From: Lentisphaeria bacterium UBA1784
GTDB taxonomy: Bacteria > Verrucomicrobiota > Lentisphaeria > Victivallales > Victivallaceae
NCBI GenBank assembly: GCA_002315455.1
Contig: DCGG01000175.1
Coordinates: 1 to 38,051 of the forward strand
Length of the DNA stretch: 38,051 bases
Direction: 5' to 3'
The translations under genes were made by a program, and so were the position numbers. Of the stretch, positions 2,628 through 25,007 are shown piece by piece; within the stretch, counting starts at the first letter, position 1; every line of letters starts with the position of its first letter. The notes under the pieces are model-generated. The model searched no databases, was not told the DNA's origin, and worked only from the letters and a program-made list of their open reading frames with translations.

Positions 2628-2779
2628 TCCCGGAAATGATATGCCATCCCTGCCTTGCAAAAAAACGTTTTACGACATAAGGATCATAAAAATGCAGAAA
2701 TTCTCCGTTGCGAACCACGGGGCCGGCATCCTCCCGGATGGCGAGAGGAAACTGGTCGGGAAATAGAAAACGGCAGACG

Positions 2780-3607
2780 ATGAAAATCCTTACGCAGCAG
2801 GACATCAAACGTTCTGAAATCGAGACGCTGCGGATCTTCCGCGACTTCTGCGACAAAAACCATTTGAGATATTATCTCGCCTTCGGGACTCTGCTGGGCG
2901 CAGTGCGGCACAAAGGTTTCATCCCTTGGGATGATGACGTTGACGTCTTCATGCCGCGGCCGGACTACAACCACCTCATCGCGCACTTCAATGATGCGGA
3001 CCAACACCGCAGAGAGGTCGTTTCCCGGCAGAATACCCCGGATTTCTATTTGAACAGCGCAAAGATCATCGACCGGAATACCGTCGTGCAGGAAACGGAA
3101 CGCTCTCTTGCTATCGGCGTCTGGATTGACGTCTTTCCCATGGACCTCCTGCCGGAAAACGCTCTGCTGCGCCGATGGGCGGTGTACCGCGTGTGGCTGC
3201 TGAATTTCCTGATCGCGCACTTTGTGCCCGCCGGCGGCAAGACCCGAGCATGGTACAAAAAACTCCTGTTCCGGCTTTGGCGGCTCGTCCGCCCGCCCAA
3301 ATCCAGGCTGGAGGCCCTGCTCAAAAAGGAAATGAAAAAATTGGAACGGAATCTTTCAGGCAGTTATTATGGCCTGCTGTACAAATACTTCTGGTATGCC
3401 GGGACCCCGATCTTTCCGGTTTCGGATTTTGAACCATCCGTGAAACTGGAATTCGAGGGAGAACACTACGATGCTCCGGCAGAGTATGATAAACTCCTCC
3501 GCCTGTGCTACGGCGATTATACGTCCCCGCCGCCGGCGGAACTTCAGAAAAGCCGTCATTCCTGCATTTGCTATTGGGATGATGCCTCCCCAAAGGAGCA
3601 GAAATGA
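2780..3607 (+). CDS. LicD-family phosphotransferase (nucleotidyltransferase fold; transfers a phospho-alcohol from a CDP-activated donor)
   Basis: N-terminal block LRIFRDFCDKNHLRYYLAFGTLLGAVRHKGFIPWDDDVDVFMPRPDY is the LicD signature, including the DDD-x-D acidic motif. I chose the ATG at 2780 (MKILTQQ) over the track start at 2708. The stop overlaps the next start (ATGA at 3604-3607). Confidence 0.8.
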   Translation: MKILTQQDIKRSEIETLRIFRDFCDKNHLRYYLAFGTLLGAVRHKGFIPWDDDVDVFMPRPDYNHLIAHFNDADQHRREVVSRQNTPDFYLNSAKIIDRNTVVQETERSLAIGVWIDVFPMDLLPENALLRRWAVYRVWLLNFLIAHFVPAGGKTRAWYKKLLFRLWRLVRPPKSRLEALLKKEMKKLERNLSGSYYGLLYKYFWYAGTPIFPVSDFEPSVKLEFEGEHYDAPAEYDKLLRLCYGDYTSPPPAELQKSRHSCICYWDDASPKEQK

Positions 3608-4011
3608 AACGTGTGCTGACGTTCGGCGTTTTCGACTATTTTCACATTGGACATCTGGCGCTTCTGGAACAGGCCCGGGAGCAAGGAGATTTTCTGATCG
3701 TTGCCGTGCAGAAGGACGAGGCAATCCGGAAATACAAGCCGGAGGCAAATGTGTTTTATTCCACGGCCCAGCGCGTGCGCCTGATCGAATCCCTGCGCCC
3801 GGTGGACCGCGTCGTGACCTATTCCGACGTGGATAAGGACATTCAGCGAATGGATTTCGACGTCTTCGCCGTAGGCGAGGACCAGATCCACGACGGATTT
3901 CAGCGGGCCATCCAATGGTGCTTGGGCAACGGCAAGAACGTCGTGCGGATGCATTACACGCAGGACATCTCCTCGACCGAACTGAAAAAACGGATCAAAG
4001 ACCTGTCATGA
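3604..4011 (+). CDS. Small cytidylyltransferase of the TagD/glycerol-3-phosphate cytidylyltransferase family
   Basis: 135 aa. Carries the HxGH motif in GVFDYFHIGHLALLEQA and a C-terminal ISSTELKKRI block resembling the RTxGISTT motif. Translationally coupled to the LicD gene. Confidence 0.85.
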   Translation: MKRVLTFGVFDYFHIGHLALLEQAREQGDFLIVAVQKDEAIRKYKPEANVFYSTAQRVRLIESLRPVDRVVTYSDVDKDIQRMDFDVFAVGEDQIHDGFQRAIQWCLGNGKNVVRMHYTQDISSTELKKRIKDLS

Positions 4012-5295
4012 AAGTTTCTTCCGGGCGCGCAGGATGATCAACATTTGCACGGGTAGCAACGCAAGGAAGGCATACTTTTCACCGCCCGGCCGCAGCAGAT
4101 AAAAAAGCCCAAACAGCCCCGGAACCGCAAGAAAAAGCACGACAGACAGCATGCTGTACAGCCCAATTTTTCCTTTTGGCACCAAACGCACCAGACAGAG
4201 ACTCGTGGTACTGGTCCCAACAATAAACGGGATCGCCAGCATCACGACCGGGATCAGTTCGTGATATCCTGCCGCGTCAGCGGCGCCGAACCAAGGCAGA
4301 ATCAAGCGGGGAAAGACAAAAACCGCGACCAAAATCGCTCCGATCCACGCCAAAGCGAAACAAAGTGATCGGTCATACACCATCTTCGCGCCCGCTTCGT
4401 CACCCGCGCCCAGACAGCGTCCGCCCAGCATGAGGGAAGTCTCTCCGGCCGCCAGAAACGCATAGTCCCCCGTGAGATAGATCATCATCACCACCGACCA
4501 GAAAAACAGCGCATTCTCGCCCTGAAACGCGAGAACGAGCCGGTTCATCGCGTATGCCATAATCATGTAGGCAAGAGTCACTGCGATGAATCCGGAACCG
4601 TAACGGATGTTGCCGCCAATGGTTCCGAGCAATCGCGCCAGGGAGCATTTCATGATCCGGAAGGGACAATCCTTGTGGCAATAGGCGGATAGCAGGATCA
4701 CTACTCCCGCCGTCGCGGAGAGCAAGGAGGAATACGCCAGCGCCTCGATGCCCAGTCCGAAGCCTTTGATCAACAGGAGATTGCAGGAGAGATTCACCGC
4801 GAATTGCCCCAGGGCAGAACACATCACCAGCACCGGGCGCCCGGACATGGCCGTAAACATGATGCCGATGACCAGTTCCCCGGCAACGATGAAATATGGT
4901 ACCATCGCGAAAAGATACCTTTGCGTCAATCCCCGCAGCCCGGAATTTCCGCACAGAAACTCCGTCAGGGGGCAGGAAAAAACACTGATTGCGGCCCCCA
5001 ACAGCAGCATCGCGGCAAGAGACGACACGGCGGCTCCCGTAAAATGCCGGCGCACCGCCGCCGCGTCGCCACGACCAAGCGCCAGAGAAGCCAGCGTGCA
5101 CGCCCCCATGCCGAACAGCATCGTCAGCGCATAAAACAATTCATACACCGGCATCACCAGTTCCACGACCGACACGGCATCGGCACCGAGCAGATTCCCG
5201 CCCACCGCGGCATCCACCACCATCGTGGCCTGCGAAGCGATCACGCAGACGAATATCGAGCCAAGATAGCGGGCATGTTCGAGTTTATTCATCAT
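4006..5295 (-). CDS. MATE/MOP-superfamily polytopic membrane exporter or flippase
   Basis: 429 aa and very hydrophobic, roughly 12 predicted helices by eye. The N-terminal pattern (ATMVVDAAVGGNLLGADAVSVVELVMPVYELFYAL...GMGACTLASLALGRGD) is MATE-like. The start overlaps the stop of the upstream carrier gene (ATGA at 5292-5295). Confidence 0.8.
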   Translation of the reverse strand: MMNKLEHARYLGSIFVCVIASQATMVVDAAVGGNLLGADAVSVVELVMPVYELFYALTMLFGMGACTLASLALGRGDAAAVRRHFTGAAVSSLAAMLLLGAAISVFSCPLTEFLCGNSGLRGLTQRYLFAMVPYFIVAGELVIGIMFTAMSGRPVLVMCSALGQFAVNLSCNLLLIKGFGLGIEALAYSSLLSATAGVVILLSAYCHKDCPFRIMKCSLARLLGTIGGNIRYGSGFIAVTLAYMIMAYAMNRLVLAFQGENALFFWSVVMMIYLTGDYAFLAAGETSLMLGGRCLGAGDEAGAKMVYDRSLCFALAWIGAILVAVFVFPRLILPWFGAADAAGYHELIPVVMLAIPFIVGTSTTSLCLVRLVPKGKIGLYSMLSVVLFLAVPGLFGLFYLLRPGGEKYAFLALLPVQMLIILRARKKLS

Positions 5296-5519
5296 TTGGA
5301 GAGGTATCGCTTCAGCATCGCCTCCATGGCCGCGACCGAGTTGAAATTCTCTTTGACGATTGAATCAAACGCGATCTCGACGTCAAATGCGTCATCAAAC
5401 TCCGCGATCAGCCGGATTACGGCAAGGGAGTTGATGTACCCGTCATCGACCAGCGCAGTGGACGTGACGTCGATGCCGCTGACGTTTTCCTTCAGGATCT
5501 TTTCAATGATTTTTTTCAT
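5292..5519 (-). CDS. Carrier protein (75 aa), D-alanyl-carrier (DltC)-like
   Basis: MKKIIEKILKENV...LVDDGYINSLAVIRLIAEFDDAFDVEIAFDSIVKENFNS. It has a Ser in a G-x-x-x-S-L context followed by an FD-V/I segment, as in DltC-type carriers (from memory). The ATG at 5519 overlaps the stop of the ATP-grasp gene. The 161-aa track ORF adds an Arg/Gly-rich extension that I reject. Confidence 0.75.
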   Translation of the reverse strand: MKKIIEKILKENVSGIDVTSTALVDDGYINSLAVIRLIAEFDDAFDVEIAFDSIVKENFNSVAAMEAMLKRYLSK

Positions 5520-6664
5520 GATCTGGCCTTTTTTCTGTTTTCCACCAGTTGCTCCACCGTTTCCAGCATGAACCCGTAAGGCACGTGGAAGCCGATCAGG
5601 TCCTCGAATTCCCGCTTCACCCCATGCCCAACGCACATCTGGAAGAAAAGCTCCCCGTTGGTGTTGCCTTCGATGATGCACCAGCCCTTTTCGGAATGCG
5701 CCACGTCCCACCCGATATAGCGGAGCGTCGGCAGTTTGAGGGCGGCCTCCTCCAGCATTTTTTTGAGTTCCGCCCACTGGGGCATGACGAAACCTTTGAT
5801 CTTAAGGCCGGATACCGGATGGCATTCCGTCGTTCCAATCGCGGTCATTCCATCCGTTACCACGATCCCGGTTTCGGCATCGATCAGGGCGTCCACGCTG
5901 TACATCTCGCCGGACTTTTCAATGCCGTCCCCCAGCATCAGCCGGAAAACGGGATGGAAGAAATGGACCTTCCCCTTGACCAGAATGGTCGTCACCCGGA
6001 GCACGGACATCTCTTTGGGATTGAAGGCGGCGATGGCTTGCGACGGAACGATCTCCTCCTCCAGAATGAGGCGGTGGTCGACGGGCCTTGTGACGTCCTC
6101 GCAGGAGAGGGCGGCGGCCTCCGTAAGGAGGGCGCGGAAAACCGCCTTCCGGTCGGTCGTTTCATCGACGGTCAGACGATGGACCCCTTCGGCGAGTTCG
6201 AGATTCACCGGCTTGACGAAGACCGAACGGTGTTTTGCCGTGAATGCGCAGAAGGCATCGAAATCCTCCTCCCCTGTGAGAAGCATCGCTTCGCGTTTGT
6301 AAAATGGCTTGAGGAGCGTGTAGGCTTCGAATTTGTTGTCGAGCCAATGCAGGTCCCGGTCCCTGTTCAGAAACGCCATGTAAATGAACCGGCTGAACCA
6401 GGTGACGTACTCCGCCTTCTGCGCGTGAGATAAATGCTCAAATCCATATATTCCGTATTCGAGAAAACTTGTGCCGTACATCTGCTGACAGTAGACCGCC
6501 TCGTAAAACATCTCGGCGAGGCGCTTTTCATCCGGCAGAAACTCAATGTACGTCCGCATGAAGTCATCCTGCATTCCGGCAGGATAACGCTCCGGGTTGT
6601 CCGCCATGATCTGCCGGGCGATCCGTTGGATCTCCTTTGGATCTTCCGTTATTTTGTATTTCAT
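5516..6664 (-). CDS. ATP-grasp enzyme of the sugar-transfer-associated type (Pfam ATPgrasp_ST / TupA-like as I recall them); biochemical function uncharacterised
   Basis: 382 aa. Contains SVFVKPVNLELAEGV, a C-terminal block LRYIGWDVAHSEKGWCIIEGNTNGELFFQ, and an N-terminal LDNKFEAY segment. Confidence 0.7.
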   Translation of the reverse strand: MKYKITEDPKEIQRIARQIMADNPERYPAGMQDDFMRTYIEFLPDEKRLAEMFYEAVYCQQMYGTSFLEYGIYGFEHLSHAQKAEYVTWFSRFIYMAFLNRDRDLHWLDNKFEAYTLLKPFYKREAMLLTGEEDFDAFCAFTAKHRSVFVKPVNLELAEGVHRLTVDETTDRKAVFRALLTEAAALSCEDVTRPVDHRLILEEEIVPSQAIAAFNPKEMSVLRVTTILVKGKVHFFHPVFRLMLGDGIEKSGEMYSVDALIDAETGIVVTDGMTAIGTTECHPVSGLKIKGFVMPQWAELKKMLEEAALKLPTLRYIGWDVAHSEKGWCIIEGNTNGELFFQMCVGHGVKREFEDLIGFHVPYGFMLETVEQLVENRKKARS

Positions 6665-6682
6665 AAAGTCATCTCAACTCTC

Positions 6683-6796
6683 TCAAAGCACGCAATAATT
6701 TTCATATGTCAACGCAAGGATGGAGTCCACGCATTTGCGAAGGTACCGCTCCACGTTGTAGATCGGAACGATGATGGAAATGAGGGAACGGGTCAT
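6683..6796 (-). pseudogene. Remnant of a family-2 glycosyltransferase (N-terminal 37 codons only)
   Basis: My own translation gives MTRSLISIIVPIYNVERYLRKCVDSILALTYENYCVL-stop. This is the canonical GT2 N-terminus (SIIVPxYNxExYLxxCxxSxxxQTYxNxE), but it stops just before the expected EIIxVDDGS motif. The ATG overlaps the ligase stop (ATGA at 6793-6796). It is below the size cutoff of the ORF track. Confidence 0.6.
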
Positions 6797-8199
6797 GGTG
6801 CCACCTCCTCCAGTTTCCCGTACTGCACTTTACCGCTCTCCAAACGGGGGATTTCGTCGACGTGCCATACCCGGAATGCCTTGCGGGGGATCATGGTACG
6901 GGAGGAAAGCAGGTCGATCACCGCCTCCTCATCGACACCGGCATCCGTGGTGAAGACCGTCAGATGAGAATCATCCCCCGTGCAGGCGCAATCCGTCAGG
7001 AACGGCTGCAGCATGAGTTCCGCGTGATCCAGACAGATCCTGATCCCGAAAAGTTTGATGAAACGCGACTTGCGCCCGGTAATAAAATAAAAGCCTTCGG
7101 CATCCCGGTACGCCATGTCGCCCGTGTGAATCACCCCTCGGTTTTCATCGCCTTTCGCAAGGTCTTCCGCACGCTCTGCATAACCGAGGCAAACGTTCGG
7201 ACCTTCATACACGAGTTCCCCCACGGTGTTGGATGCCGTGATCGGCTTCCCATTTTCATCCATGAGCGAAAGCCGGCCTCCGGGAATCGCCTCTCCGATG
7301 CTGCCCGCCTTGGTTGGAATGTACTCCGGATCAAGGTAAGCGATCCTCGCCGTGGCCTCCGACTGCCCGTACATCACGTAGAACTTCACGCCCCGGGGAC
7401 GAAACGTTTCATCAAAAAACAGGACGTGTTCCCGGTTCAGCGCGCCGCCCGCCTGCGTCAAAGTGCGCAGGGTCGGCATCTCCTGCTTCCATATCCCAAG
7501 TTTCCGGATCGTCTCGAATGCGTACGGCACCCCGGAATACGAGGTAAAACCGTTCCTTTTGGCGAAGTCCCAGAATTCACGCTGGACAAAGGCGTCTTCC
7601 GTCAGCAACAGCGTGGCTCCGGTCAACAGATGCGAGTTGATGATCGAGAGCCCGAAGGCGTAGTTCATCGGCAGTCCCAGAACGGGGCGCTCCCGGTCCG
7701 TGAGGTGGAGATACTCGATGATGGCGGCGGCGTTGGCGCGCAGGTTTTCTTTGCTCAACCGCACCAGCTTGGGCGAACCCGTACTGCCCGACGTCGCCAG
7801 CAGAAGCGCCAAATCGTCCGCGACGGCGGTCCCGTTTTCGCGAGTGTCCCAAAGAACGTAACTCTCCGCCTCGAAGATCCGGTCTGCTCCGCTGACCAGC
7901 CGGCAGTTCGCGGGAGCCCAGACGTATCGGGGACGATACACCTCCGCGATACTGTCGAACGACTTCTGCGTCATGCGGGCGTCCAGCAACAGCGTTGCAT
8001 CCCCGTTCCGCAGAAACGCGACGTAACCGGCGATTGCTCCGACGGAATTGCCGCAAAGCGAGAACACCAGCCGGTGCGGATCGGCATGATTTCCGATCCT
8101 CCCGGCGAGTCCGTCCAGTTCACCGTAGGTGATCGACCGCCCCGAAGAATGGATGCAGGCAGTCCTGTCTGCAAAAGGCCCGAAGTCAAAGATCACCAA
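6793..8199 (-). CDS. Adenylate-forming enzyme (ANL superfamily; acyl/aminoacyl-carrier-protein ligase, DltA-sized)
   Basis: 468 aa. Core motifs are LLATSGSTGSPKLVRL (TSGSTGxPK), YGQSEA, GDMAYRDAEGFYFITGRKSRFIKLFGIRI and C-terminal PRLESGKVQYGKL. The start is non-ATG (TTG at 8199 or GTG at 8196) and overlaps the SDR stop. Confidence 0.85.
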   Translation of the reverse strand: MVIFDFGPFADRTACIHSSGRSITYGELDGLAGRIGNHADPHRLVFSLCGNSVGAIAGYVAFLRNGDATLLLDARMTQKSFDSIAEVYRPRYVWAPANCRLVSGADRIFEAESYVLWDTRENGTAVADDLALLLATSGSTGSPKLVRLSKENLRANAAAIIEYLHLTDRERPVLGLPMNYAFGLSIINSHLLTGATLLLTEDAFVQREFWDFAKRNGFTSYSGVPYAFETIRKLGIWKQEMPTLRTLTQAGGALNREHVLFFDETFRPRGVKFYVMYGQSEATARIAYLDPEYIPTKAGSIGEAIPGGRLSLMDENGKPITASNTVGELVYEGPNVCLGYAERAEDLAKGDENRGVIHTGDMAYRDAEGFYFITGRKSRFIKLFGIRICLDHAELMLQPFLTDCACTGDDSHLTVFTTDAGVDEEAVIDLLSSRTMIPRKAFRVWHVDEIPRLESGKVQYGKLEEVAP

Positions 8200-8945
8200 A
8201 CGGAATATCCTCCATCAATCACCAGAGAGGTACCGGTCGTCCAGGCGGAGGCATCGGATATGAGATAAATGATTCCGTATGCGATCTCCTCAGGTTTTCC
8301 ATATCTGCCAAGAGGATATAACGTTTTGTCTTTTGCCAGATCCGCTTCCGATACAGCACCCCCATGAATCAAATCCGTTTCCACCATTCCCGGTTGGACG
8401 GCATTGACCCTGATGTTTCGCGGGCCAAGTTCCAGTGCGCAATAGCGCATAAAATTCGTAAGAGCGGCTTTTGATGCGCCGTAAATGCCGTTGCCGGCTA
8501 CCGCGCTGTCCGCAGCTGCGGATGAGGTGAAGACGATCGAACCGCCGGATTTGATTTTTTTCCGTTTCAGAAACGCCTTGATGATCAGCATCGGAGAAAA
8601 AGTGTTTATCCCAAAGACATAAGACAGGTCTTCCGGTTTGTAGAATGCGACCGGTTTCGTCACCACTACCCCCGCATTGCAGACAATTCCATCGACTTCC
8701 GGAGTTTTATCCGCCAATTTGTCGATTCCTTCCGGCTCAGCGAGGTCGGCAATGATCGAAAGATGCCCCTCGCCAGCAAGAGCGTCCAACGTTTCCTGCA
8801 GACGTTTTTCATTGCGTCCGGTGATGATGCAACGGGCGCCCAGTTTGGAGCATTCGACGGCGACGGCTCTCCCGATTCCGGAAGATGCGCCGGTGATCAG
8901 GATGGTCTTCTGCGTCAGAAAGAATGGATTTTCGATCACACCCAT
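8193..8945 (-). CDS. SDR-family oxidoreductase, 3-oxoacyl-ACP reductase (FabG)-like
   Basis: Has the TGASSGIGRA cofactor motif, the YGASKAAL catalytic Y-x3-K and an upstream SSAA serine. It overlaps the KAS III stop by 10 nt. Confidence 0.9.
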   Translation of the reverse strand: MGVIENPFFLTQKTILITGASSGIGRAVAVECSKLGARCIITGRNEKRLQETLDALAGEGHLSIIADLAEPEGIDKLADKTPEVDGIVCNAGVVVTKPVAFYKPEDLSYVFGINTFSPMLIIKAFLKRKKIKSGGSIVFTSSAAADSAVAGNGIYGASKAALTNFMRYCALELGPRNIRVNAVQPGMVETDLIHGGAVSEADLAKDKTLYPLGRYGKPEEIAYGIIYLISDASAWTTGTSLVIDGGYSVW

Positions 8946-10000
8946 GGGGAAATCTCCTTATCTTCCACTTCAACAAGATCGGAAATGACCAAATGCTCCG
9001 TCTCAAACGCAACGGTTCCCCAGGAAAGCCCCACGCCGAAACCGCAACAGATGAATTTGTTTTTTCTATCTGCGGCGCCTTTGAGCTGTGTGACGATCGT
9101 GAGCGGAATGGACGCCGATGAGGTGTTTCCGAACGATTGGATGCTGGAAGGCACTTTTTCCGGCGCAAGTTTCAGTTTTTTGGCGATCACGTTGTTCAGC
9201 ATCTTATTGGCCTGATGAAACACAAACCAGTCGTAATCAAGGTAGTCAAAACCGAAATGTTCGCCGAGCAGTCTGACGGACTTCGGCGCCGTCGTAATGC
9301 CGAATGCGAAAATATCCATCCCCTTCATATACCCCTGAATACGGGTATATTTCATGCCGTCGATCTCCTGCTGTGCAAAGGAGTTCTGGCTGATACCGTT
9401 ACGGCAACCGCCATCCGGGACAATCAGCGAATCATAACCGCGGCCGTCCGTGCCGAAATGAAATCGGAACCCTTCCGCCCCTTCGGAATACTCCAGAGCG
9501 GTCACCGTTCCCGCGTGTCCGAAAAGCGGGGATTTATCAGGCACGACACCTTTTGCATCACCGGTCAGAAGCAGAGCCTTTCGGATCGAGCCGGAAGACA
9601 GGAGAGAAGCCGCATTGCTTAAACCATAGACCCAGCCGGAACACCCGAGAGAAACGTCTTCCGCATAGCACTCCTCGCTCAATCCAAGCCGGTACTGCAA
9701 AATGCACGCGGTGGCAGGCAAGATATAATCAGGAGTCTGCGATACAAAGAGAAGCGCATCGATCTCTTCTTTCGCCCAGCCGAGGTCTGCAATCAACTTT
9801 TCCGCCGCCTCATAACACAAGTCGGAGGTGGTGAGTCTGTCGCTGTAGCGAAGTTCCCTGACACCGGTCGTCTGAATGAATTCTTCAGCTGAATACTTGA
9901 TGTCCGGATAATCCTCATTCGCAAGATTATCAACGGCATTTTTCGGGACTCCGGCGGAGATGCCGGCGATCCTGACGTTTTTGATACTTAAATATGCCAT
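8936..10000 (-). CDS. 3-oxoacyl-ACP synthase III (FabH-like KAS III)
   Basis: 354 aa. The catalytic triad is visible: Cys in SLGCSGWVYG, His in VFHQANKML, Asn in FGNTSSASIPL. The ATG at 10000 lies 3 nt after the ACP stop. Confidence 0.9.
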   Translation of the reverse strand: MAYLSIKNVRIAGISAGVPKNAVDNLANEDYPDIKYSAEEFIQTTGVRELRYSDRLTTSDLCYEAAEKLIADLGWAKEEIDALLFVSQTPDYILPATACILQYRLGLSEECYAEDVSLGCSGWVYGLSNAASLLSSGSIRKALLLTGDAKGVVPDKSPLFGHAGTVTALEYSEGAEGFRFHFGTDGRGYDSLIVPDGGCRNGISQNSFAQQEIDGMKYTRIQGYMKGMDIFAFGITTAPKSVRLLGEHFGFDYLDYDWFVFHQANKMLNNVIAKKLKLAPEKVPSSIQSFGNTSSASIPLTIVTQLKGAADRKNKFICCGFGVGLSWGTVAFETEHLVISDLVEVEDKEISPWV

Positions 10001-10003
10001 GAT

Positions 10004-10237
10004 CTACAACTTGGTGATGATGCACTTATATACATCCTCGACAGTGACCGCGTTATGAAGATCGTTTCCGCTGATGGTAACGCCAAATTCATCGTCGACC
10101 ATCGCGATGACGGAAAGGGCGGTCAGGGACGACCACTGCTCCAGATCGTGAAATACCGTATCCGCTTTAATGGTCGCGGGTTCCGTCCTGAAGAATTGCT
10201 CTGCGAAAAGAACAACAAATTCATCCAATGTTTTCAT
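10004..10237 (-). CDS. Acyl carrier protein (77 aa)
   Basis: MKTLDEFVVLFAEQF...DLEQWSSLTALSVIAMVDDEFGVTISGNDL shows the carrier-protein helix II pattern with a candidate phosphopantetheine Ser. I chose the internal ATG at 10237 over the track start at 10300. Confidence 0.8.
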   Translation of the reverse strand: MKTLDEFVVLFAEQFFRTEPATIKADTVFHDLEQWSSLTALSVIAMVDDEFGVTISGNDLHNAVTVEDVYKCIITKL

Positions 10238-10337: not shown

Positions 10338-10997
10338 TTAAAATTCTGTTTTTACGGCAGGGACCCCCATATAAAGGAATCCGTCCCTGGGATTGGTCAT
10401 AAGCGTGCTGCCGGCAACAAGTTTGACGTGATGGCCGATGACAATATGCGGGATGACGATGCTTCCGGTGCCGAAGAAATTGCATTCCCCGATCTTGACG
10501 TAACCGGAAATCCTCACTCCGCCTTTGAAGGAATTGAAGGAACCGATTCCGACGTCATGCCCGAGAACGACGTCGCCATTGAACACGTTGAAATCACCAA
10601 TGTGCACGTCACAGGTGGCGGAACAGCCGCTCTTAATGATGTTCCCCTTGCCGATCACAAAAGACTCCGGATCATCCGAGAATGCACCGTAAGGATGAAT
10701 CAGATTCGGGAACCAAAGACGATCGTTGGCGATGGCGTCATAGACTTTTTTCACTTCCAGGGGATCACCGATCGTCAAGGCAACGGCAAGTTCCCGGTCC
10801 CACGCGTTCAATTCGCCGAGCCCGCCGAAACAGGGGCCGAAATGGGAGACCTGCGTCCCTTTCTGCGCGGGATTGCTGTCGAAGAAACCGATCAGATTCC
10901 ACGTGGGCTTCTGCTCGTTGATCCGCCGGATCATGCAGGCGACTTCCCTCCCGAAGCCGCCGGCTCCGTAAAGTGCAATGTCTTTCAATTCCGCCAT
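10338..10997 (-). CDS. Sugar N/O-acyltransferase of the NeuD/PglD family (left-handed beta-helix)
   Basis: The N-terminus LYGAGGFGREVACMI is the Rossmann-like PglD_N-type segment. The C-terminal half has hexapeptide repeats (IGDFNVFNGDVVLGHDVGIGSFNSFKGGVRISGYVKIGECNFFGTGSIV). Confidence 0.85.
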   Translation of the reverse strand: MAELKDIALYGAGGFGREVACMIRRINEQKPTWNLIGFFDSNPAQKGTQVSHFGPCFGGLGELNAWDRELAVALTIGDPLEVKKVYDAIANDRLWFPNLIHPYGAFSDDPESFVIGKGNIIKSGCSATCDVHIGDFNVFNGDVVLGHDVGIGSFNSFKGGVRISGYVKIGECNFFGTGSIVIPHIVIGHHVKLVAGSTLMTNPRDGFLYMGVPAVKTEF

Positions 10998-11378
10998 TTT
11001 ATCTGCGCGCCCCTTCCCCTGCGAAATTCAGAACGGCACGCCGCAGAAAAATTTTTCCGGAACGGTTCAAAAGCGGTCACGGTACTTTCCCGCAACGCAA
11101 CAGTGGAATCTCCGAAAATAAAGATTTTTACCATGATCAGTATTCCCCGGGGACCTCCATCCATGCCGCTTTGACGGAAATCCCGAACGCTCTTGTCTGA
11201 AAATCTCCACGTGAGATCAGTCTCTGCTGTAATGTACTTTCTGAAGCGCCCTTTTTCAAATCGTGACCGTGATTTCTGCAGAAAGATCATCAACGCCCCG
11301 TCAAACCTGCGAAAAAAGCATCGCAGGACCGCCGTACGCAGAGAAAAATTGCACGGCGTTGTTTCCGCAGCCGGGTCG

Positions 11379-23949: not shown

Positions 23950-24750
23950 TTACTTCGTAGTGGTCGTGTGAGACAAATCTTCCTGCAGGGTCGTCTCGAT
24001 CTCCACGGAGGAGTCCCGCAGCTCGCCGGGGCCCATTATCCGGGAACTGCCATCGGCCATGCCGACCACGGTCGTTCCCTTATGGATCATTGTGATCAGA
24101 CCTTTTCCTTCTTTGCTGCCGGCAGAAAAGCGGTCATACGTGTTGGGAGAGGGCGCTCCCGATATGAAGGTATCGGCGAAGATGATCAGATTGGCAGGAT
24201 CCTTCATGCGCATGAGATTGTAGGAGACCGTCTTCTTGTCCTTATAGGAGCGGAAGCGGCCGACGACTTCGATCACGTCCTTATCATCCTTTGTCTTCCC
24301 AGTGTACCAACTGTCGCTTTTTTCTGAAAGATCCAGCATTCCCACGGCATTGGCTCCACTGGTATAGAGAAAATGCATATCTGCTTCCGTACACAACAGT
24401 ATCTTGTCTTCCGGCATGTAGCCGATCGCTCCTCCAATACGAATTTCCTTATCCGTCAACTTCTTTCTGCCCGTTTTGCCGCTCAAAATCATGGCGTAGT
24501 TCGCATTGCTCGCAGCCTTTTTTTCATCGACATCCTTGCCGTATGACTTCAGCAGGAACGGGATGTGCTGCTTGTTGTCGCCGGCGTACTGCAAAGCGGC
24601 GAGCCCCAACTGATGGCGGTTGTTGACGCAATCCGTACGGACGCTGGTGGCCCGGGCTCCGCCGAGGGCGGGCATGATCATGCCGGCCAGAACACCGATG
24701 ATACCGATGACGACCAGAAGTTCCACCAGAGTGAAAGACGATTTTTTCAT
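23950..24750 (-). CDS. Prepilin-type N-terminal cleavage/methylation-domain protein with H-X9-DG motif (DUF1559-like pseudopilin paralogue)
   Basis: The leader MKKSSFTLVELLVVIGIIGVLAGMIMPAL is the class III signal. IHKGTTVVGMADG matches H-X9-DG. I chose the ATG at 24750 over the track start at 24804. Confidence 0.85.
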   Translation of the reverse strand: MKKSSFTLVELLVVIGIIGVLAGMIMPALGGARATSVRTDCVNNRHQLGLAALQYAGDNKQHIPFLLKSYGKDVDEKKAASNANYAMILSGKTGRKKLTDKEIRIGGAIGYMPEDKILLCTEADMHFLYTSGANAVGMLDLSEKSDSWYTGKTKDDKDVIEVVGRFRSYKDKKTVSYNLMRMKDPANLIIFADTFISGAPSPNTYDRFSAGSKEGKGLITMIHKGTTVVGMADGSSRIMGPGELRDSSVEIETTLQEDLSHTTTTK

Positions 24751-25007
24751 AGAGTTCTCCCGTTTTGTTTCCAAAGGAATCCTGTCAGAATCCACAACTT
24801 GCACGGCTTAAGATACACCGAAGACAGACAAAATGCAAATCTCTCCGGAGGCTCCGGCTGACAAACTTTTCATTAATTATGTGAGTTTTCTGCGATTTGT
24901 CAACGTTTTTCCGGCGATCCCCTTGCAAAAAAGGGAAAGAAAGAGTATCTTGAGCAAGGAACACTCTTTTGTTGTCAAGGATTTCATTCAACGAGGTCGT
25001 AACATAT

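Follow-up and report, generated by a model that had tools for sequence, protein, structure and literature searches.

The known examples of carrier-dependent acylation of cell-surface polymers are mainly Dlt D-alanylation and a small number that concern lipid A and O-antigen. In Firmicutes the Dlt pathway is composed of the ligase DltA, the carrier DltC, the MBOAT (membrane-bound O-acyltransferase) protein DltB and the membrane-anchored SGNH-like protein DltD. In Vibrio cholerae, AlmEFG places glycine onto lipid A by means of a ligase/carrier pair that feeds a non-MBOAT acyltransferase on the cytoplasmic side. The butirosin side chain is assembled by BtrI, an acyl carrier protein (ACP), BtrJ, an ATP-grasp ligase, and BtrH, an acyltransferase; this pathway does without an ANL ligase because BtrJ itself loads the ACP. 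Two further systems serve for comparison: the perosamine N-acylation genes of V. cholerae O1, for cassettes with a hexapeptide acyltransferase, and the TupA-like amidoligase of the Campylobacter jejuni capsule, for the family PF14397 (ATPgrasp_ST, "sugar-transfer associated ATP-grasp"), of which we found no member with a tested function in the literature. Here we analyze an operon of the metagenome-assembled genome (MAG) Lentisphaeria bacterium UBA1784, in which an ANL adenylating ligase, an ATPgrasp_ST ligase and two small carriers are encoded together with FabH-like, FabG-like and sugar N-acyltransferase genes.

The sequence under study, hereafter the window, is the whole stretch of 38,051 nucleotides, positions 1-38,051 of contig DCGG01000175.1, and all coordinates are based on it. 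The operon comprises nine open reading frames (ORFs) on the minus strand, from 10997 to 4006, which mostly abut or overlap by a few bases; the only intergenic gaps are one of 100 nt and one of 18 nt. Among the loci we saw, this is the only one that combines a set of genes known from FabH/FabG acylation cassettes with an ATP-grasp/carrier set. Three carrier families, called c7, c9 and c11, recur in these loci, and two of them are represented in the operon, which reads in order:

10338-10997, minus strand: first gene of the operon, NeuD/PglD-like left-handed beta-helix sugar N-acyltransferase, 219 aa (PF17836 PglD_N and PF00132 Hexapep)
10004-10237, minus strand: second carrier, AcpP-like, c11 type, 77 aa counted from an internal ATG (PF00550, 27.1 bits)
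8936-10000, minus strand: FabH-like 3-ketoacyl-ACP synthase III, 354 aa (PF08541 and PF08545)
8193-8945, minus strand: FabG-like short-chain dehydrogenase/3-oxoacyl-ACP reductase, 250 aa (PF13561, 185 bits)
6793-8199, minus strand: ANL adenylating ligase of the acyl-CoA-synthetase type, 468 aa (PF00501, 141.5 bits)
6683-6796, minus strand: remnant of a family 2 glycosyltransferase (GT2) gene, 37 codons, a rearrangement scar (read directly from the sequence)
5516-6664, minus strand: ATP-grasp ligase of the ATPgrasp_ST family, 382 aa (PF14397, 99.9 bits)
5292-5519, minus strand: carrier of the c7 type, 75 aa (PF00550, 27.1 bits)
4006-5295, minus strand: last gene of the operon, MatE/MOP-superfamily membrane protein, 429 aa (PF01554, 42.8 bits)

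The part from the ligase to the 75-aa carrier forms the downstream half of the operon. The ATG of the GT2 remnant overlaps the ligase stop codon, and the frame reads as a typical GT2 N-terminus for 37 codons before it meets a stop, 18 nt past which the ATP-grasp ATG is found; ATGA overlaps then join the ATP-grasp stop to the start of the 75-aa carrier and the carrier stop to the start of the MatE-like gene. An earlier sequence-only reading of this DNA had placed the 468-aa ANL enzyme and the 75-aa carrier in one operon, with only the GT2 remnant and an ATP-grasp gene between them and the ATP-grasp stop overlapping the carrier start, and both genes and the whole arrangement are confirmed. All the features that it listed are present; the finding in question makes no mention of the 77-aa carrier, FabH and FabG, which alter its interpretation.

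The likeness of this locus to the Dlt pathway lies in a stand-alone ANL enzyme accompanied by a carrier that measures about 75 aa and has a conserved Ser, to which the relatives of the locus add an MBOAT and a single-pass SGNH-like protein. The differences are of several kinds: the window ligase is of the acyl-CoA-synthetase type, and the four Dlt family models compared (TIGR01734, NF003464, TIGR04091 and PF04914) all gave either no match or scores far under their cut-offs; the extracytoplasmic partner in the relatives is AlgX/DHHW-like instead of DltD, and an ATP-grasp is added; finally, the window is without MBOAT and SGNH, and its host is a diderm Lentisphaeria with the genes in a polysaccharide locus. 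AlmEFG is a precedent for a carrier pair without DltB and DltD, but AlmE genuinely activates an amino acid, AlmG belongs to the LpxL-type acyltransferases, and ATP-grasp, FabH and FabG are all missing from that system. The butirosin pathway offers the example of an ATP-grasp acting on ACP-tethered intermediates and of a finished acyl group that moves from the ACP to an amino sugar; besides the missing ANL ligase, it differs in that its product is an aminoglycoside antibiotic, and the likeness drawn here is one of role. The sequence-only reading had suggested a non-canonical Dlt-type carrier system: it was right in so far as relatives pair the same families with MBOAT and SGNH while the window has neither, and wrong in so far as Dlt membership was implied.

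The ligase belongs to the ANL superfamily (PF00501, cut-off 29.9 bits), and the absence of condensation and thioesterase domains noted earlier is borne out. Its adenylation motifs are intact (TSGSTGSPK, YGQSEAT, HTGD, GRKSRF and a C-terminal SGK), and G456 and K457 are invariant across the family. On the DltA models TIGR01734 and NF003417 it scores 85.9 and 86.4 bits, against cut-offs of 559.85 and 476; adenylation domains of non-ribosomal peptide synthetases from other genomes reach about 210-320 bits on the same DltA model, and the window enzyme is therefore much less DltA-like than ordinary amino-acid activators. Among NCBIfam models it matches best, though below threshold throughout, one for an exosortase-associated acyl-CoA ligase and general ones for acyl-CoA synthetases, and its best PDB matches are oxalate-CoA and malonyl-CoA ligases; a profile of 15 family members likewise ranks oxalate-CoA ligases at the top (114 bits), with DltA at 78-80 bits. 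Amino-acid activators carry in their A4 core an FDxS motif whose Asp binds the alpha-amino group of the substrate. The corresponding region of the family, lPmyyafGl, aligns to LPLFHVHGL of the oxalate-CoA ligase 5ie0 and contains no Asp. Among five genomes carrying this ligase family no stand-alone DltA passing the cut-off was found to serve as reference, and the ligase tree, built with 92 ligases, holds no true DltA sequences. The scores and the A4 alignment show an acyl-CoA-synthetase-type ANL enzyme that lacks the amino-acid signature and is not a DltA. The proposal of a DltA/DltC-like pair thus fails both as family membership and as D-alanine chemistry, with the ligase at 86 bits and no FDxS. 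The sequence-only reading had itself named, as evidence that would count against it, a ligase grouping with fatty-acyl ligases together with a carrier grouping with AcpP paralogues; the ligase is indeed of acyl-CoA-synthetase type, whereas the carrier is no AcpP paralogue.

The ligase family is very widespread, with at least about 600 genome-scan matches in many phyla. In a set of 40 host-related genomes no member was found, and a contig scan of genomes with the ligase alone as query returned distant relatives only. Of the best 80 loci among those at least 600 matches, 54 have a c9 carrier adjoining the ligase, 33 have FabG and 21 a hexapeptide acyltransferase; FabH occurs in eight, a c7 carrier in seven and an MBOAT in six. 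The tree places the window ligase in a clade with those of L086 and L006 (support 100; L006 lies on the same contig as L087), as sister to L007 and L008 (support 97) and inside the group of L012 and L032 (99); the last four are all FabH and FabG cassettes. This topology shows a window ligase that, as judged by phylogeny, derives from those of the FabH/FabG cassettes. The ATP-grasp modules themselves use three ligase lineages, namely the window clade, a clade of L091-L094, and a distant FadD/MenE-like group (L088-L090, L097 and L130), which suggests that the ligase is an exchangeable part of the ATP-grasp/carrier modules.

The upstream half of the operon resembles cassettes made of a carrier, an ANL ligase, FabG, sometimes FabH, and a hexapeptide acyltransferase, found in polysaccharide loci (L007, L008, L012, L032, L052 and L067). 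The L007-type cassette is composed of a NeuD/PglD-like acyltransferase, a c11 carrier, a c9 carrier, the ligase, FabH and FabG, and the window holds five of these six parts; the c9 carrier is absent, and the ATP-grasp and the c7 carrier stand where it would be. The window acyltransferase, which scores 135 bits on TIGR03570 (NeuD/PglB/VioB; cut-off 160.8), is 41-58% identical to those of L007, L008, L012, L032 and L052. The 77-aa carrier, whose top NCBIfam matches are AcpP models at about 25 bits, is 43-48% identical to the c11 carriers of L007, L012 and L032 (45% to that of L032); FabH scores 191 bits on NF006829, below the cut-off of 249, and is 44-48% identical to FabH of the L007-type cassettes, while FabG reaches 132-156 bits on FabG-type NCBIfam models, all under their cut-offs. 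The two systems are alike in the ligase family, within which the window ligase is nested, and share, with identities of 41-58%, the acyltransferase, the c11 carrier and the FabH and FabG enzymes; they differ in that the cassettes have a c9 carrier by the ligase and no ATP-grasp, whereas the window has an ATP-grasp, a c7 carrier and the GT2 scar. On this synteny, it is plausible that the NeuD/PglD-like beta-helix acyltransferase is the consumer of the carrier-bound group.

The 75-aa carrier is a PP-binding protein (cut-off of PF00550, 20.8 bits), and Ser31, the predicted phosphopantetheine-attachment residue, is invariant in 12 carrier homologues. Its top NCBIfam match is DltC (NF003464), at 26.1 bits against a cut-off of 68, which leaves it outside the DltC family; DltC structures match at E 0.003 with the single sequence and at 7e-5 with a profile. 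The profile of the 12 homologues finds in the PDB the aminoacyl carrier protein 4h2s first (E 2e-9), and peptidyl carrier proteins and DltC (E 7e-5) come ahead of housekeeping ACPs (E 0.006 or worse). From these matches the carrier appears to lean to the aminoacyl/D-alanyl side, yet it is neither a DltC nor an AcpP paralogue; its likeness to D-alanyl carriers, pointed out by the sequence-only reading, is real but weak. It is 45-62% identical to the carriers of ATP-grasp modules. Among the c7, c9 and c11 families, hhalign found remote and similar relationships only, with no pointer to the origin of c7; the probability for c7 and c9 was 83%. In two loci of Ignavibacteria (L039:11634-15996 and L041), a c7-like carrier has as neighbours a hexapeptide acyltransferase, a glutamine amidotransferase of the AsnB type and another ANL ligase. 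An MBOAT was not found within 7 kb, and these loci may represent another MBOAT-less use of the c7 type.

The ATP-grasp enzyme is a member of ATPgrasp_ST well above the PF14397 cut-off of 31.4 bits. In an AlphaFold2 model (predicted local distance difference test, pLDDT, 88.8), the N-terminal region is helical and leads into a standard ATP-grasp core, and Foldseek placed nearest to the model Ddl, LysX/ArgX and RimK, with template-modelling (TM) scores of 0.35-0.58 and 10-15% identity. LysX and ArgX act on the carrier protein LysW; as far as the model tells, these matches reflect no more than the generic ATP-grasp fold. Across 23 homologues neither K151 nor the Mg site E332-x-N334 varies, and the window enzyme keeps both; in fact, both the ATP-grasp and the carrier retain every family-invariant residue and show no decay. 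The ATP-grasp is much rarer than the ligase, with 142 proteins in a large database and 127 genome loci, and a scan of metagenome contigs with it returned distant homologues only, at 25-45% identity. In all 13 close loci (at least 41% identity) that extend past the gene, a c7 carrier is encoded at most about 1.1 kb downstream of the ATP-grasp; the named ones are L086-L095, L097 and L130, from Bacteroidales, Rikenellaceae, Lentisphaeria, Ruminococcaceae and Clostridiales MAGs. Around members at 38% identity or less no carrier was found nearby with the queries used. ATPgrasp_ST and the TupA-like amidoligase are alike as ATP-grasp ligases of surface-polysaccharide loci; what sets the present group apart is that the joining to a carrier is confined to the subclade at 41% identity or more to the window enzyme.

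Across loci, the identities of the ATP-grasp and of the carrier to those of the window fall in parallel order. A predicted complex of the two proteins reached an ipSAE of 0.57, against 0.00 for the best of three controls; at least 60% of contacts were common to the runs, and the pLDDT of the partner was 85 or more. The ipSAE mark applied is reached by 58 of 80 solved complexes and by 2 of 110 mismatched pairs, and values of 0.60 or under include seven of the 80 solved complexes and both of the mismatches that pass, so that the model lends weak support to binding. Because of the strict adjacency, the parallel divergence and this weak pass, the ATP-grasp and the 75-aa carrier are likely to form a functional pair; that the ATP-grasp works with the carrier, as the sequence-only reading supposed, fits an adjacency that is kept in 13 of 13 loci while the ligase lineage varies. 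Dlt-like operons without an ATP-grasp also exist in Clostridia MAGs (L014:404-5923 and L015:9001-14527), with a ligase of the same family as that of the window; they encode the ligase, a c7-like carrier, an MBOAT, an ORF of about 500 aa without Pfam match and a type II thioesterase, and two more loci, L023 and L059, contain at least ligase, c7-like carrier and MBOAT. Since L014 and L015 lack the ATP-grasp, the ligase can presumably load the carrier by itself, and the ATP-grasp would be an added step.

In ten loci (L087-L094, L097 and L130), ATP-grasp, c7 carrier, SGNH-like protein, MBOAT and ligase all occur together, in the order ATP-grasp, often a protein of about 10 transmembrane segments, carrier, SGNH-like protein, MBOAT and then ANL ligase. 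The SGNH-like protein of about 420 aa has one N-terminal transmembrane segment and weak AlgX/DHHW matches; the MBOAT has about 490 aa. By family content, this five-family module is a predicted Dlt-analogous architecture of four roles plus the ATP-grasp. The multi-spanning protein, c5, has about 320 aa and about 10 predicted transmembrane segments and accompanies ATP-grasp and carrier in L088-L095, L097 and L130 (for example L088:8893-9849); its sole match is a weak, sub-threshold one to EamA in L130, and the window, L086 and L087 do not have it. In L087 the order is ligase, ATP-grasp, carrier, SGNH, MBOAT and MatE-like gene, and in the window it is ligase, GT2 scar, ATP-grasp, carrier and MatE-like gene, the MatE-like protein being 57% identical to that which follows SGNH-MBOAT in L087. 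The SGNH and MBOAT genes were either lost from the window or never acquired by it.

The host MAG measures 2.06 Mb and is 80% complete. Six-frame searches of it with PF03062 (MBOAT) and PF04914 (DltD) gave no MBOAT on the window contig, only on contigs C108 and C82, and no DltD anywhere; thus the window does lack both proteins, as was first read from the sequence, and the search for dltB and dltD through the whole genome, proposed at that time, yields MBOATs on those two contigs alone. In tblastn searches of the MAG with all module proteins, no SGNH homologue was found, and the only MBOATs were again those of C108 and C82, at 30-33% identity. The DltB model was considered as a discriminator and is not used as evidence, as MBOATs of the modules and of the MAG all score about 136-145 bits on it. 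On C108 (L001:862-3678) a DltB/AlgI-type MBOAT of 542 aa is followed by a 393-aa ORF without Pfam or NCBIfam match, which may be an unrecognised extracytoplasmic partner; on C82 (L002, C82:2224-4598) the MBOAT is cut by the contig end and is followed by a 366-aa fusion of a PlsC-type acyltransferase with a PP-binding domain and then by an ANL ligase (match at C82:669-1646).

A second locus resembles the window in this respect: L086, in a Bacteroidales MAG, has ligase, ATP-grasp, carrier and GT2 and then reaches the contig end, and in its 1.7-Mb MAG no match to the module MBOAT or SGNH was found. Among the closest metagenomic homologues (62-69% identity), the matching of hit lists, which is indirect, suggests at least seven contigs with SGNH and ATP-grasp and four perhaps without SGNH; contigs of 21532, 12321 and 10201 nt have ligase, ATP-grasp and SGNH homologues, and contigs of 13134, 10479, 11093 and 11351 nt have ligase and ATP-grasp with no SGNH recorded. 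The MBOAT-less state is probably a derived minority condition, of which there are at least two instances, each in an incomplete MAG. The sequence-only reading had also counted it as contrary evidence if dltB/dltD homologues went along with the pair elsewhere; in the ten module loci, it is MBOAT and the AlgX/DHHW-like SGNH protein that share the locus with it.

Across about 2-11 kb of the window the GC content is 0.51-0.57, compared with 0.58-0.65 in most 1-kb bins beyond; the ATP-grasp is present in two of 121 genomes of the host family; and the nearest operon homologues, among the matches listed, belong to Bacteroidales and Rikenellaceae MAGs. Because of this low GC, of the scarcity in host relatives and of the origin of the nearest homologues, horizontal acquisition is the simplest reading, and the GT2 scar shows that rearrangement followed. 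PurU of the window shares 60-70% identity with its counterparts in gut MAGs of Lentisphaeria and Victivallales, which places the host as a Victivallales-like gut bacterium.

We propose, as the likeliest of the readings considered and at about even odds, that the operon is a horizontally acquired mosaic in which a non-amino-acid acyl group is built on carriers and delivered to a surface glycan by a hybrid, cytoplasmic route. The ligase would adenylate a short carboxylic acid without amino group, such as an oxo-, hydroxy- or dicarboxylic acid of C2-C4, and load it onto the 75-aa c7 carrier, which would take the place of the c9 carrier that adjoins the ligase in sister cassettes. Like BtrJ acting on BtrI, the ATP-grasp would carry out an ATP-dependent ligation on the group tethered to the carrier, and FabH and FabG, with the 77-aa AcpP-like carrier, would extend and reduce the acyl unit to a 3-oxo- and then a 3-hydroxy-acyl group. 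The NeuD/PglD-like enzyme would move the finished group onto an amino sugar on the cytoplasmic side, and the MatE/Wzx-like protein, probably a Wzx-like flippase, would afterwards export the lipid-linked unit; with acyl transfer in the cytoplasm, no MBOAT would be needed. A broader idea, which we hold only tentatively, is that the ATPgrasp_ST subclade is a carrier-dependent tailoring ligase for composite acyl-amino-acid groups on the surface glycans of gut anaerobes, delivered mostly via MBOAT and SGNH and rerouted here to a NeuD/PglD-type enzyme; the ATP-grasp would form an amide, or load a second residue, on the c7-tethered acyl group. If so, the window would be a natural example of a swapped delivery arm in a Dlt-like system, and the lineages with MBOAT and SGNH would have a Dlt-like pathway for cargo other than D-alanine.

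Several points weigh against the mosaic pathway. Each chemical step is drawn from context, and no substrate is known for these protein families. The gene order of ligase and ATP-grasp may be an accident and not a selected pathway, since the GT2 remnant bears witness to rearrangement. The similarity of c7 to c9 is only remote, and cross-recognition by the ligase is thus uncertain; SGNH and MBOAT are present in most close relatives, and the carrier family may accordingly be adapted to MBOATs. An MBOAT could lie on an unassembled piece of the MAG, or act in trans from C108 or C82. Moreover, NeuD/PglD enzymes normally use acyl-CoA, so that an acyl-carrier donor is putative here, and the predicted complex of ATP-grasp and carrier speaks for their partnership only weakly.

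It is rather unlikely, in our view, that two unrelated units stand side by side: a complete N-acylation cassette, in which acyltransferase, AcpP-like carrier, FabH, FabG and ligase would attach an acyl group, for instance a 3-hydroxyacyl one, to the nitrogen of an amino sugar, and a stranded ATP-grasp/75-aa carrier fragment of a Dlt-like MBOAT module, idle or decaying, that would have lost SGNH, MBOAT and its own ligase in the rearrangement that truncated the GT2 gene. The scar does fall exactly between ligase and ATP-grasp, the SGNH and MBOAT genes that L087 has between carrier and MatE-like gene are missing from the window, most close relatives keep SGNH, and FabH/FabG cassettes are complete units elsewhere. 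Such cassettes, however, normally hold two carriers, and here the second is missing unless the 75-aa one counts; ATP-grasp and carrier are intact, with all invariant residues, and translationally coupled on both sides, and the terminal branch of the ligase does not exceed in length those of its closest relatives. The nearest ligases, those of L086 and L006, are directly joined to an ATP-grasp, so that the adjacency is older than the window locus, and the L086 trio is a second one in whose MAG neither MBOAT nor SGNH of the module type was found.

Less probable still is that the trio of ligase, ATP-grasp and carrier feeds a Dlt-like extracytoplasmic O-acylation through an MBOAT located elsewhere, on C108 with its 393-aa neighbour, on C82, or in the unassembled part of the MAG. 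The MAG has two MBOATs of the DltB/AlgI type, at about 136-141 bits on the DltB model like those of the module itself, it is only 80% complete, and the carrier family is linked to an MBOAT in most loci; but both MBOATs are only distantly related to those of the modules, that of C82 has its own adjoining carrier domain and ligase, and no homologue of the module SGNH and no DltD were found in the genome. We give very little credence to a genuine D-alanyl or alpha-amino-acyl pair of the Dlt type, in which an ATP-grasp of Ddl-like fold makes or extends a dipeptide. The best NCBIfam and PDB matches of the carrier, DltC and an aminoacyl carrier protein, and the D-alanine-D-alanine ligases among the folds nearest to the ATP-grasp would agree with it. 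Against it stand a ligase far under the DltA cut-offs and without the FDxS Asp, the FadD/MenE-like nature of the alternative ligases in sister modules, and a Ddl match that is generic for the ATP-grasp fold (TM 0.35-0.46, 11-15% identity).

The part superfamilies are already known, and so is the logic of adenylation, tethering and transfer, from Dlt, AlmEFG and O-antigen N-acylation cassettes. In the literature we found no description of a module of ATPgrasp_ST, carrier and MBOAT, nor of the FabH/FabG cassette; as far as the literature was searched, the tight ATPgrasp_ST/carrier pair, its embedding in a Dlt-analogous module with MBOAT and SGNH, and its joining to a FabH/FabG/NeuD-PglD cassette that replaces the MBOAT arm all seem new. 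The locus and its relatives point to a wider set of carrier-acylation modules in gut anaerobes (Bacteroidales, Clostridia and Lentisphaeria), in which delivery falls to an MBOAT together with an SGNH-like protein or, it appears, to an acyltransferase in the cytoplasm. The chemistry, if worked out, would give a function to PF14397 and reveal new acyl decorations on the glycans of gut microbes, which shape phage and host recognition.

The genes around the operon agree with its setting. A LicD-family phosphotransferase and a small cytidylyltransferase, on the plus strand at 2708-4011 and joined by an ATGA overlap, converge on the MatE-like gene and suggest a phospho-alcohol decoration of the same glycan. 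A Wzy_C/TPR protein is encoded further along the window, and these three neighbouring genes identify a surface-glycan locus. At the other end of the operon, a 49-codon ORF on the minus strand (10985-11134) overlaps the acyltransferase start and has no Pfam match at E 0.01. Farther away, at 23950-24804 on the minus strand, a protein of 284 aa has a prepilin-type N-terminal methylation motif (PF07963), a kind of protein that we take to be common in Lentisphaerae and other bacteria of the PVC (Planctomycetes-Verrucomicrobia-Chlamydiae) group.

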